Shown here piece after piece: positions 7,801 through 13,169 of a stretch of DNA of 64,000 nucleotides (position 1 is the first letter of the stretch; each line of letters opens with the position of its first letter). The notes beneath the pieces are model-generated. The model worked only from the letters and a program-made list of their open reading frames with translations, was not told the origin of the DNA and searched no databases. The stretch lies in the NCBI RefSeq assembly GCF_048403405.1, contig NZ_CP183129.1; one strand, written 5' to 3'. The position numbers and the translations under genes were made by a program. The stretch is from Escherichia coli (GTDB taxonomy: Bacteria > Pseudomonadota > Gammaproteobacteria > Enterobacterales > Enterobacteriaceae).

Positions 7801-8001
7801 TTACTTCTTCGGTTGATCCTTTTTCGGCCAGTCGTCGTCATCGTCCCACTTATCGTTGAAATCACGATGCGGGGGAAGCTCCGGCTTGTTGGCGAGAAAT
7901 TTCTTATGGTCGACGCGCTTGAGATCTTTAATCACGTTCAGCAGGACGCCTACCAAAAAGACAATCACCAGAATCCACCAATATTTAGCCAGCCAGTCCA
8001 T
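7801..8001 (-). CDS. ypfN: small inner-membrane protein YpfN (UPF0370)
   Basis: [34 protein letters not shown]...[14 protein letters not shown] (66 aa): single TM helix plus acidic tail. The track ORF extends 8 codons upstream to 8025. Confidence 0.8.
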
Positions 8002-8028
8002 GCTTATTTCCTCTTGCAGAACCACTCA

Positions 8029-9156
8029 TCAGGCGACGAGCTGTTCCATGATACGTTGATACATACGGGCAAGTAGCTGCAGGTCGGCAGCGTTCACACA
8101 TTCATTAATTTTATGAATAGTGGCATTGACCGGCCCGAGTTCCACCACCTGCGCCCCCATGCGGGCAATAAAGCGCCCGTCGGACGTTCCGCCTGTGGTC
8201 AGTAGCTGCGGTTTAATTTCATTATAGTGCTCAACCGCGTTAACGACCGCATCCACCAGTTTACCGCGCGCGGTCAAAAATGGCTGCCCGGAAAGCCACC
8301 ATTCCACCGTATAACGCAGTTGATGTTTTTCAAGCAGGGCAAGTACCTGCGCTTTGATCATCTCATCAGTCAGTTCGGTGCTGAAGCGGAAGTTAAACTG
8401 CACAAACAGTTCACCCGGAATAACGTTGTTACTGCCCGTTCCCGCCTGAATATTGGCAATCTGCATACTGGTCGCCGGGAAGAATTCATTGCCCTGATCC
8501 CACTCAATAGCCACTAATTCATTAAGGAAAGGTGCTGCGCGATGTACCGGATTGTCAGCCAGATGTGGGTAGGCAACATGCCCCTGCACGCCATGAATGG
8601 TGAGGTTGCAGGTTAACGATCCGCGACGACCATTTTTCACCACATCACCTACCACTTCGATACTCGACGGTTCGCCAACCAGGCAGTAATCGAGACGCTC
8701 ATTACGTGCCATCAACGCTTCGACGACTTTTACCGTACCGTTATGGGCACTGGCTTCTTCATCAGAAGTGATCAGAAATGCCAGTCGACCTGCATGGTTG
8801 GGATGTTGTGCGACAAAGCGTTCTGCCGCTACCACCATCGCTGCCAGCGAGCCTTTCATATCTGCCGCACCGCGCCCGAATAACATGCCATCACGAATGG
8901 TGGGTTCAAACGGCGGATTGATCCAACGATCGGCGTCGCCAGGCGGCACCACGTCGGTATGCCCGGCAAAGGCCAACGTTTCACCTTGCCCACGCCATGC
9001 CCAAAAATTCTGCGTATCGGCAAAATCCATGCGTTCAACGGTAAAACCGATCGCCTGCAAACGTTCAATCAACAAAGCCTGACATCCTGCGTCATCAGGA
9101 CTCAGGGAAGGGCGGCGAATAAGCTGTTGTGTCAGCTCAATAACCGGGCACGACAT
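8029..9156 (-). CDS. dapE: succinyl-diaminopimelate desuccinylase
   Basis: 375 aa, [26 protein letters not shown]...; M20 peptidase metal-binding motifs (HTDVVP, GAADMKG). Confidence 0.95.
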
Positions 9157-9159
9157 AGA

Positions 9160-9534
<375 letters not shown>

Positions 9535-9897
9535 TTATGAGAATAAATACTCATTTAAGGGTGAAAACATTTTGCCTGCAAATGATTATCAGGAAATATA
9601 ACATTATCGAAGTATTCAAATTAACAACTATTAAATAATATTAAACATTTTTAACGTAAACATTAAGAATATTCATCTTGTTATCTGTCTGTATTTTAAC
9701 CAGAATTAAATCAGTATTAGATGCCGTATGAATATCTCGAAATGTTGCTGTGTATCACATACAAATCATCACCGCAGGACCATAGTATTTACATAAGATT
9801 TGTCCCCCCGGAGGTAGTCATCGCAGCAATCGAGTAAATTAGCTTCACCACGGTATATTGTTTCCGTAGAATACCCATAATTATAAGAGAGGTTGTT

Positions 9898-9957
9898 ATG
9901 ATTGAACGTGAACTGGGGAACTGGAAAGACTTTATCGAAGTTATGCTTCGTAAGTAA
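9898..9957 (+). CDS. ypfM: 19-aa small protein YpfM
   Basis: ATG 9898 preceded by AGAGAGG (spacing about 6 nt); translation MIERELGNWKDFIEVMLRK, stop TAA 9955-9957. Not in the ORF track (below size cutoff). I recognise the peptide from memory as the K-12 small protein YpfM. Confidence 0.75.
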   Translation: MIERELGNWKDFIEVMLRK

Positions 9958-10015
9958 TTCCTGAGACAAAGTACAAAAAGCAAGAACCTGCTGAGCAAGT
10001 TCTTAATCGGAAAGT

Positions 10016-10050
10016 TGAAAAAGGCGACACATTGGCATGTCGCCTTTTTT
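10016..10050. terminator. bidirectional intrinsic terminator between ypfM (+) and acrD (-)
   Basis: A-run, GGCGACA-cattggca-TGTCGCC stem, then TTTTTT; lies 6 bp from the acrD stop. Confidence 0.75.
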
Positions 10051-10055
10051 ATTGC

Positions 10056-13000
10056 TTATTCCGGGCGCGGCTTCAGCGGGAAGCGGCGGCGCACCAGCAC
10101 AAAGAACAGCGGCACGAAGTAAATAGCCAGAATAGTGGCCGAAATCATCCCGCCCATTACGCCAGTACCCACCGCATGCTGACCACCGGAACCGGCACCC
10201 GTGCTGGTTGCCATTGGCAATACGCCGAAGATAAATGCCAGCGAGGTCATCAGAATCGGGCGTAAACGCTGACGGCAGGCGTGGAGCGTCGCTTCAAACA
10301 GGTCGTGGCCTTTTTGGTTCATCTCGTTAGCAAACTCGACGATCAGGATGGCGTTTTTCGCCGATAAACCAATGACCGTTAACAGGCCCACCTGGAAGTA
10401 AACGTCGTTTTCCAGCCCGCGCATCCAGGTTGCCAGCAGCGCGCCGATAACCCCCAGCGGCACGACCAGCATTACCGAGAACGGCACCGACCAGCTTTCA
10501 TACAGCGCCGCCAGACACAGGAATACCACCAGCAAGGAAATGGCGTACAGCGCCGGAGCCTGCGCGCCGGAAAGCCGCTCCTGATACGACATCTCCGTCC
10601 ACTCCAGACCAAAGCCGTTTGGCAGCTGCTTCACTAACGATTCCATAATATCCATCGCCGTACCAGTACTGACCCCCGGTGCGGCTTCCCCGACAATCTC
10701 TACCGCAGAATAACCGTTATAGCGTTCCAGACGCGGCGAGCCTGTTTCCCAGCGTGAGGTCGCGAAAGCAGAGAAGGGCACCATGCCGCCATCTTTATTT
10801 CGGACATACCAGAGATTAATGTCATCTGGCAGCATGCGATACGGCGCAGCTGCCTGCACATAGACTTTCTTCACGCGACCGCGATCCATAAAGTCATTCA
10901 CATAGCTCGAACCCCAGGCGGTTTGCAGTGTGTCGTTAATATCGTCGATAGCAACGCCCAGCGCCTGAGCTTTACGCTGGTCGATATCAATCTGCAACTG
11001 CGGACTGTCGTCGAGGCCGTTATGGCGCACACGGGTTAGCTCCGGGTTTTCCGCCGCCAGCGCCAGCAACTGGTTACGTGCTGCCATCAGCGCATCGTGA
11101 CCTGCTCCAGCGTGGTCCTGCAACTCCATATCAAAACCCGCAGAACTGCCAAGACCGCTAATTGCTGGCGGGCTGCTGGCGATAACGCGAGCTTCTTTAA
11201 TCTTGTTAAACGCCTTCGTTGCACGCTCGATAATGGCAAACGAGGTGCCGGTCTTACTGTCGCGTTCGCTCCAGTCTTTCAGGCGGATAAACATTCGCGC
11301 CACGTTTTGCCCGTTACCCCCAGGGCCAGAACCAACAGTGGCAAACACCGACATGATGTTGTCTTTTTCATGGGTGAAGTAATATTTCTCGATTTGCTCA
11401 ACGACTTTCAGGGTCTGTTGTTGGGTTGAACCGCTGGGCAATTGTACCGAGGTAGTAAACATGCCACGGTCTTCCAGCGGTAAGAACGACGTCGGCAAAC
11501 GCAGGAACAGGAACACCATGCCGCCAAGCAGCAGGACATAAATCACAATCCAGCGCAGGCTGCGGTGGAGAATTTTCGCCACCCCTTTTTCGTAGCGTTC
11601 GGCGTTGCGGTTAAACATCTGGTTAAACCAGGCAAAAAAGCCTTTTTGCCCGTGATGCTCACCCTTTTTCAGTGGCTTAAGTAGCGTGGCACACAGAGCC
11701 GGAGTGAGGATCATCGCTACCAGTACTGACAGCACCATCGCCGCAACAATGGTAATAGAGAACTGGCGATAGATGGCACCGGTGGTGCCGCCGAAGAAGG
11801 CCATTGGTACAAATACCGCCGAAAGCACCATCGCAATCCCGACCAGTGCCCCCTGGATCTGCCCCATCGATTTACGTGTGGCTTCGCGAGGAGTGAGTCC
11901 TTCCTCACTCATAATACGTTCGACGTTTTCCACCACCACGATGGCGTCATCCACCAGCAGACCGATCGCCAGTACCATTGCGAACATGGTTAAGGTGTTG
12001 ACGCTGTAACCGAAGGCGTAAAGTACGGAGAAGGTTCCCATCAACACCACCGGCACGGCGATAGTGGGTATCAGCGTGGCGCGGAAGTTTTGCAGGAACA
12101 GATACATAACGAGGAAAACCAGAGCGATAGCTTCCAGCAGCGTTTTCACCACGTCTTCAATGGAGGCTTTAACAAACGAGGTGGTTTCATACGCCACCTT
12201 GTATTCCAGTCCGTGCGGGAAATACTGCGCCAGCTCGTCGAGACGATTGAGCACCAGCTCCGCTGTCGCCATTTCGTTCGCGCCGGAGGCCAGTTTTACC
12301 CCCAACCCGGAGGCTGGCTTACCATTGAAGCGGCTAAGATAATCGTATTTCTCCGCCCCCATTTCGACGGTGGCGACATCGCCCAGCCTTACCTCTGAGC
12401 CGTCCTGATTCACCCGCAAGGTGATATCGCGGAACTGTTCTGGTGTTTGCAGCAGTGACTGGGCGTTAATGGTGGCGTTGAGCGCCTGCTTATCGACGGA
12501 AGGCGTACCACCAAGTTGCCCAACCGCAATCTGCGCGTTCTGTGACTCAATGGCATCAGTGACATCTTTAGCCGTCATCTGGAAACTGTTGAGTTTCGCC
12601 GGGTCCAGCCAGATACGCATGGAATATTGCGAACCATAGGCATCGATATCCCCAACGCCATTCACGCGGCTTAACGGATCCTGAATATTACTGGCAACGT
12701 AATCGGCAATATCCTGTTTATCCATCGAACCATCGGTAGAGACGAAGGCAATGGTCAGAATGTTGGTATCGCCGGTTTTACGCACCGTCACGCCCTGATT
12801 TTGCACTGCCTGCGGTAACTTTCGCATGGCAGATTGCAGCTGGTTTTGTACTTGCTGCACGGCTTCGTCCGGATCGGTGCCTGCTTTAAAACTTAAAGTG
12901 ACAGATGCCTGACCGGTGCCGCTGCTCTGAGATGACATATACATCAGATTATCGAGACCGGTCATATTTTGCTCGATAACCTGGGTCACGGTGTTTTCCA

Positions 13001-13169
13001 GCGTCTGGGCCGATGCGCCGGGATAGTTAGCGGTCACTCGCACATTCGGTGGCGCGAGATCGGGGTATTGTTCAACGGGCAATGAAAAAATCGCCAGGGT
13101 CCCTGTCAGACACAACAGGATTGCCAGCACCCAGGCAAAAATGGGGCGATCAATAAAGAAATTCGCCAT
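10056..13169 (-). CDS. acrD: RND aminoglycoside efflux pump AcrD
   Basis: 1037 aa, [41 protein letters not shown]..., HAE1-family RND transporter (AcrB paralogue). Confidence 0.93.

Follow-up and report, generated by a model that had tools for sequence, protein, structure and literature searches.

ypfM, an annotated 19-codon gene between yffB and acrD of Escherichia coli, encodes a conserved small protein

The short reading frame at positions 9898-9957 on the plus strand of the DNA studied here is almost certainly a real, translated gene, ypfM, and we consider it very probable that the 19-residue peptide is its functional product. The window, that is, the whole stretch analysed, comprises 64,000 nucleotides of E. 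coli DNA (contig NZ_CP183129.1, RefSeq assembly GCF_048403405.1). Within it, the frame runs from ATG at 9898 to a TAA ending at 9957, with 19 codons and a stop (ATG ATT GAA CGT GAA CTG GGG AAC TGG AAA GAC TTT ATC GAA GTT ATG CTT CGT AAG TAA), and translates as MIERELGNWKDFIEVMLRK. The assignment as a coding sequence draws on this translation, on the RefSeq annotation, on a frame-specific substitution pattern (pN/pS of 0.14) with codon-position periodicity, and on detection of the product by mass spectrometry (PMC12529367).

There is nothing new in the gene call itself; ypfM is already known and annotated. An identical 60-nt coding sequence appears in RefSeq between yffB and acrD as ypfM, product "protein YpfM" (WP_001386977.1), and the window DNA encoding the peptide is 100% identical to the RefSeq coding sequences that carry this label. 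Set against E. coli YpfM (b4606; WP_001386977.1; family NF033843), the window copy has the same 19-aa sequence, the same position between yffB and acrD, and the same orientation, with no difference: it is the gene itself. A sequence-only reading had placed a 19-codon ypfM at exactly these positions, a call that the translation and the identical RefSeq entry bear out; it had also recognized the peptide as a known small protein, in keeping with the RefSeq label, the family model, and the mass spectrometric detection. Its remark that the gene was missing from the track of open reading frames on account of its length was likewise correct: 19 codons fall below the 60-aa threshold of that track and below the 20-aa minimum of the open reading frame listing as well. 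The family model, NCBIfam NF033843 (small_YpfM), is an equivalog model of 19 positions. Our match to it was made with a natural 20-aa ortholog from Yersinia, a stand-in for the 19-aa window peptide, which scored 32.1 bits (E = 7e-8), just below the 33-bit cut-off. A family scan with the same 20-aa ortholog found no Pfam family, and a PDB profile search with YpfM returned solely a 9-residue chance match (E = 1.5) and no solved relative.

The gene lies between two genes of the opposite strand. Upstream, yffB (9160-9516, minus strand) and dapE (8029-9156, minus strand) are transcribed divergently from ypfM, as the sequence-only reading had described; downstream, acrD (10056-13169, minus strand) converges on it. 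This arrangement, divergent from yffB-dapE and convergent with acrD, is conserved for the YpfM family. To sample the conservation we fetched 80 loci, one genome per species, by a scan anchored on YffB. The ypfM frame was kept in 73 of the 80, upstream of yffB on the opposite strand, so that the check proposed in the earlier reading, conservation of the frame in related genomes, has been run and did not refute the gene. Carriers span the Enterobacteriaceae and extend to Yersinia nurmii (with a 20-aa product), Dickeya oryzae, and [Erwinia] mediterraneensis, one species per label. In E. coli, the ypfM region was present in 5425 of 5426 complete genomes; the gene is part of the single-copy core genome, with fixed synteny.

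The association with acrD is close. Among the 73 loci that carry ypfM, 71 have acrD adjoining it; over the whole set (L002-L081), both genes were present in 71 loci and neither in seven, acrD was never found without ypfM, and ypfM was found without acrD once, in D. oryzae (L080). The remaining locus (L060) carries ypfM on a sequence too short for acrD to be scored. In Y. nurmii (L072), two genes lie between yffB and ypfM, and ypfM still adjoins acrD. The co-occurrence could be simple synteny or could be a functional link. A comparable case is AcrZ, which partners the AcrB efflux pump; it has 49 aa, forms a transmembrane helix, and is not encoded next to acrB. YpfM shares with AcrZ its small size and a genetic association with an RND pump; it differs in being charged and soluble and in having no transmembrane segment. 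Two observations on the wider neighbourhood may be recorded here. At the D. oryzae locus, positions 694-755 and 1223-1588 hold a fluoride riboswitch preceding a crcB-like gene, together with a match to the cspA thermoregulator, in place of acrD near ypfM. In the window, ypfN (7801-8025, minus strand) lies directly downstream of dapE; in RefSeq its product is a YpfN family protein of 66 aa whose N-terminal segment is hydrophobic, and the open reading frame listing starts it at a GTG further upstream, for a length of 74 aa.

Because no gene follows on its strand, ypfM forms a self-contained monocistronic unit. Its promoter, of the sigma-70 type, consists of a -35 hexamer TTCACC at 9844-9849 and a -10 hexamer TAGAAT at 9867-9872, both on the plus strand and separated by 17 nt; in a consensus scan of 9400-10200 this was the sole plus-strand promoter. 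The -35 is conserved across genera, and the columns of the -10 are 80-99% identical to the window over 74 sequences (the 73 loci and the window). Distant genera have a -10 of the GTATAAT or GTAAAAT type at the equivalent place. A genomic SELEX study of RpoD gives ypfM hexamers of identical sequence and spacing and also flags H-NS in the ypfM spacer (PMC3946193), and a sigma-70 ChIP-seq peak labelled ypfM further supports the promoter (PMC3688515). We infer a transcription start near 9879-9880. The 5' leader of about 18 nt is occupied by the Shine-Dalgarno sequence AGAGAGG (9886-9892, plus strand), separated from the ATG by five nucleotides, TTGTT; this is the good ribosome-binding site to which the sequence-only reading had pointed. 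The region, TAAGAGAGG, is nearly invariant in 64 unique sequences. A predicted 5' hairpin that would enclose the Shine-Dalgarno sequence was set aside: it is weakened in most other genera, where an A replaces a U that pairs with G.

Transcription would end at an intrinsic terminator located by terminator scan and folding, a G+C-rich stem-loop at 10016-10051, about 60 nt past the ypfM stop, with a stem that is conserved across genera. An A-run borders it on one side and a T-run on the other, and it reaches right up to the acrD stop codon, which gives it a bidirectional form. The same methods located a further hairpin within the 3' UTR (9981-10005), where the conservation profile is near zero; this hairpin is not conserved outside Escherichia. 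Read on the minus strand, it resembles a terminator, with a T-run behind it, and lies downstream of the shared terminator on the acrD strand. Transcripts reading through from acrD would overlap the ypfM 3' UTR in antisense as far as this hairpin. Over the 74 sequences, conservation is high only in the -35 and -10 hexamers, the leader with its Shine-Dalgarno sequence, the open reading frame, and the terminator stem; the 3' UTR (9960-10015) is essentially unconserved. The Yersinia, Dickeya, and [Erwinia] loci each keep their own promoter -10, Shine-Dalgarno sequence, open reading frame, and intrinsic terminator.

The presence of a short open reading frame proves little by itself, since such frames are abundant: the window has 301 frames that start with ATG and run for 15-25 codons, five of them with a Shine-Dalgarno core upstream. 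More telling is how the ypfM frame has changed. The start codon is ATG in all 74 sequences, and the stop follows codon 19 in 72 of them. Column entropy at the first, second, and third codon positions is 0.20, 0.20, and 0.69, respectively. In its own frame, pN/pS is 0.14; four other frames gave values of 1.7-2.0, with stops in most, and the mirror antisense frame gave 0.32, with an open length that ranges from 8 to 170 codons between species. Two antisense open reading frames over ypfM (66 and 69 aa) were rejected on the basis of their variable boundaries and non-coding substitution pattern. For the neighbouring gene yffB, pN/pS in the same genome pairs was 0.21, compared with 0.14 for ypfM. 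Ten residues are invariant (M1, E5, W9, K10, F12, I13, M16, L17, R18, and K19), and nonsynonymous changes cluster in codons 4 and 15. Among E. coli records, 5424 of 5425 match the 121 nt of promoter and open reading frame with an identity of 99% or more, while for the surrounding region of 541 nt the identity is no higher than 95-99% in 4074 records. Judged by these substitution patterns, the peptide, and not the RNA alone, is under purifying selection.

Translation has been observed directly. Top-down mass spectrometry detected YpfM with 100% coverage, including the N-formyl-Met form; the peptide was also detected by DIA and PRM, and an earlier detection by Schmidt et al. is cited in the same paper (PMC12529367). 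By PRM, YpfM was found in all replicates only in M63 with low Mn2+, as was AzuC (PMC12529367). The peptide has a net charge of 0, with 8 of its 19 residues charged, a mean hydrophobicity of -0.12, and no membrane-spanning stretch. Validation of YpfM with an SPA epitope tag was reportedly achieved by Hemm in 2008 and 2010. The literature consulted under the gene's name assigns no function, partner, or phenotype to YpfM, and on this point too it agrees with the sequence-only reading, which knew of no function.

Selection on the peptide may not be the whole account of the sequence. Synonymous divergence is lower in ypfM than in yffB (pS of 0.42 and 0.70, respectively, in the same genome pairs), and several codons are near-fixed among the 64 unique sequences: GGG in 58, CTT in 49, GAA at codon 5 in all 64, and AAA at codon 10 in 63. 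GGG (Gly) and CTT (Leu) are non-preferred codons in E. coli. The low pS and the near-fixed codons make constraint at the nucleotide level possible. The same segment of DNA also bears on an annotated RNA family. An Rfam E-value scan matched STnc250 (RF01409, "Hfq binding RNA") to the plus strand at 9937-10056, with 36.9 bits and E = 7e-6; the match covers the last 18 coding nucleotides and the stop (21 nt of the open reading frame), the 3' UTR, and the terminator. The E. coli 3' UTR, with about 52 nt in place of the model's 13, keeps this score under the gathering threshold of 42 bits. Orthologous stretches of Citrobacter (81-94 bits), E. albertii, Yokenella, and Enterobacter pass the threshold, with 42.9-94.3 bits, and the location is that of the family: between acrD and yffB, on the strand opposite both genes. 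The E. coli copy thus shares with STnc250 its locus and the span of the ypfM 3' end and terminator, but differs from it in the longer 3' UTR, the sub-threshold score, and the absence of the model's second small hairpin. The GAAG/CUUC stem that the model places at the end of the open reading frame is complete in 48 of 64 unique sequences, with no compensatory change. In Salmonella, STnc250 was described between acrD and yffB, contains the ypfM open reading frame, and was reclassified as the ypfM small mRNA (Sittka 2008, PMC2515195). Co-immunoprecipitation with Hfq enriched it 4-fold, with 24 reads compared with 6 for the control, and Northern blots gave signals of a stable short mRNA, about 220 nt in that paper's table (PMC2515195). 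What the family label "sRNA" covers is the 3' part of a protein-coding mRNA.

Several other explanations for the locus have to be weighed against a translated gene with a functional peptide. That the frame is a chance occurrence without function, as the 301 comparable frames in the window might suggest, is a prospect that we regard as negligible given the comparative and proteomic evidence (73 of 80 loci, a pN/pS of 0.14, and detection by mass spectrometry). The Rfam type "sRNA" and the association with Hfq would fit a purely non-coding RNA, STnc250, in which the short frame is incidental; this is very improbable, in view of the low pN/pS, the three-nucleotide periodicity, the start and stop fixed across genera, the conserved strong Shine-Dalgarno sequence, and the intact peptide (PMC12529367). 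The combination of frame-specific selection and mass spectrometric detection effectively refutes it. An open reading frame of this size, followed by a hairpin and a terminator, also resembles a leader peptide, whose translation would control a downstream gene in cis. Here the gene arrangement excludes a co-directional target and so refutes the idea, for no gene follows on the same strand and the terminator abuts the convergent acrD stop codon; furthermore, the first hairpin of the 3' UTR is not conserved, the YpfM sequence itself is conserved beyond what mere translation would call for, and the product accumulates in cells (PMC12529367), so that we hold a leader peptide to be extremely unlikely. 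A type I toxin, or another membrane-active small peptide, is hardly credible either. The gene is short and independently transcribed, and an antisense RNA from acrD read-through is conceivable, given the terminator-like minus-strand hairpin inside the 3' UTR, but the peptide has the charge and hydrophobicity given above and no segment that could span a membrane, the gene is a single-copy core gene in fixed synteny in 5425 of 5426 E. coli genomes, and the product is detectable in normally growing cells (PMC12529367).

A transcript with two functions, encoding YpfM and also base-pairing in an Hfq-dependent manner, or serving as the target of an sRNA with relevant regulation, deserves more attention and is still unlikely in our estimation. 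In its favour are the match of STnc250 to the end of the open reading frame, the 3' UTR, and the terminator; the Hfq co-immunoprecipitation and the stable short mRNA on Northern blots (PMC2515195); and the reduced pS relative to yffB with retention of non-preferred codons. The low pS and retained codons, together with the 4-fold Hfq enrichment, would allow for a further role of the RNA itself. That enrichment is modest, however, and Sittka et al. themselves call STnc250 a small mRNA gene (PMC2515195). The reduced pS was measured over only 19 codons and could stem from constraint close to the translation start. No RNA target of ypfM is known, and the 3' UTR (9960-10015), where a seed might be expected, is essentially unconserved. 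A conserved non-coding seed segment was thus not found, neither in the 3' UTR nor in the leader, whose 18 or so nucleotides are taken up by the Shine-Dalgarno sequence; a seed for base-pairing may instead lie inside the open reading frame. Precedents exist for small proteins encoded on Hfq-binding RNAs or acting as soluble regulators, including SgrT on SgrS, AzuC on AzuCR, SpfP on Spot 42, and MntS. The ypfM locus resembles these in having a product of fewer than 50 aa, a short independent transcript, and an Hfq-associated RNA; it differs in that YpfM has no sequence similarity to any of them and in that no regulatory RNA activity has been reported for ypfM.

The spacer between yffB and ypfM contains a second conserved block (9733-9786, plus strand), seen in an alignment of 47 species, with a core of TTGCT-GTGT-ATCAC at 9745-9758 and a -10-like CATAGT at 9781-9786. 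The consensus of the block is tTTCAAAATATTGCnnnnnGTCACATAAAATTT; the conserved CATAGT or CATATT that follows 21-22 nt later resembles a plus-strand -10. The block is possibly an upstream, activator-dependent promoter of ypfM or a regulator site shared with yffB, and both assignments are uncertain. If a start near 9793 were used, the block would be centred at -41.5, which corresponds to the class II geometry of CRP- and FNR-type activators, and the transcript would measure about 262 nt in E. coli and about 223 nt in Salmonella; the published band is about 220 nt. As for the regulator, the left half-site of the block fits CRP poorly, and the tables of Myers 2013 (PMC3688515) contain no FNR ChIP peak or predicted FNR site there. 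In Salmonella, a MarA ChIP peak has been reported between ypfM and yffB; the reported MarA box had no match within 3 mismatches near ypfM in the window. On the opposite strand, the yffB promoter of Shimada 2014 (TTCATA-16-TTTAAT) is the reverse complement of 9727-9732 and 9705-9710 (minus strand). The yffB leader would then be about 180 nt long, AT-rich, and poorly conserved, and would lie inside the published H-NS and IHF regions.

Published data give some hints about the regulation of the locus. The sigma-70 ChIP-seq peak labelled ypfM measured 321.6 under aerobic and 816.5 under anaerobic conditions, 2.5-fold higher without oxygen, and the H-NS and IHF regions of that study cover the ypfM spacer (Myers 2013, PMC3688515). 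In Table S5 of Park 2013, the ypfM operon is differential between wild type and an arcA mutant (7.0 and 5.8, listed as -2.4); ypfM is absent from the table of direct targets in the same paper. The 2.5-fold difference in sigma-70 signal, the 2.4-fold difference in the arcA comparison, and an upstream element with class II geometry hint that the locus does more than encode an orphan peptide, the Hfq-associated mRNA being regulatory or regulated, or the peptide modulating a partner linked to AcrD or to anaerobiosis. We put this forward tentatively, as a reading that is probably wrong.

For the peptide, which we take to be the functional product, a mechanism can be proposed from the pattern of its residues. 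Characterized bacterial small proteins act by docking on larger proteins and modulating them. YpfM would be soluble and, as an alpha-helix, amphipathic: its hydrophobic moment at 100 degrees is 0.546, within the top 2.8% of shuffled sequences. The invariant or near-invariant residues I2, L6, W9, F12, I13, M16, and L17 would form one face, with the variable positions (4, 8, 11, and 15) turned to the other side, toward the solvent. In agreement with this geometry, variability is directed to 298 degrees on a helical wheel and hydrophobicity to 95 degrees, nearly opposite (permutation p = 0.043). For a peptide of 19 residues these helix statistics (p about 0.03-0.04) are modest. Because the variable residues lie opposite the hydrophobic, conserved face, we infer, as the likeliest mode of action, that the conserved face docks on a larger protein and modulates it; we give such a docking helix about even odds. 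The neighbouring gene product was tried as a partner in an AlphaFold2 model of a YpfM-(GGGGS)5-YffB fusion with a paired alignment of 42 species. YffB was modelled with pLDDT above 90 and YpfM with pLDDT of 43-53, helical at residues 9-18 only, in a construct with an artificial linker and no PAE. Neither docking on YffB nor a stable free helix was supported by the low-confidence peptide of this linker fusion, which is a weak test.

The case of ypfM illustrates that length cut-offs in tracks of open reading frames conceal genuine genes, here one that RefSeq already annotates. At 19 aa, YpfM is under purifying selection stronger than that on the adjacent enzyme gene and is abundant enough to be detected by mass spectrometry. 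The comparative results offer starting points for a partner search in the invariant residues, the variable face (positions 4, 8, 11, and 15), the association with acrD, and the candidate second promoter.
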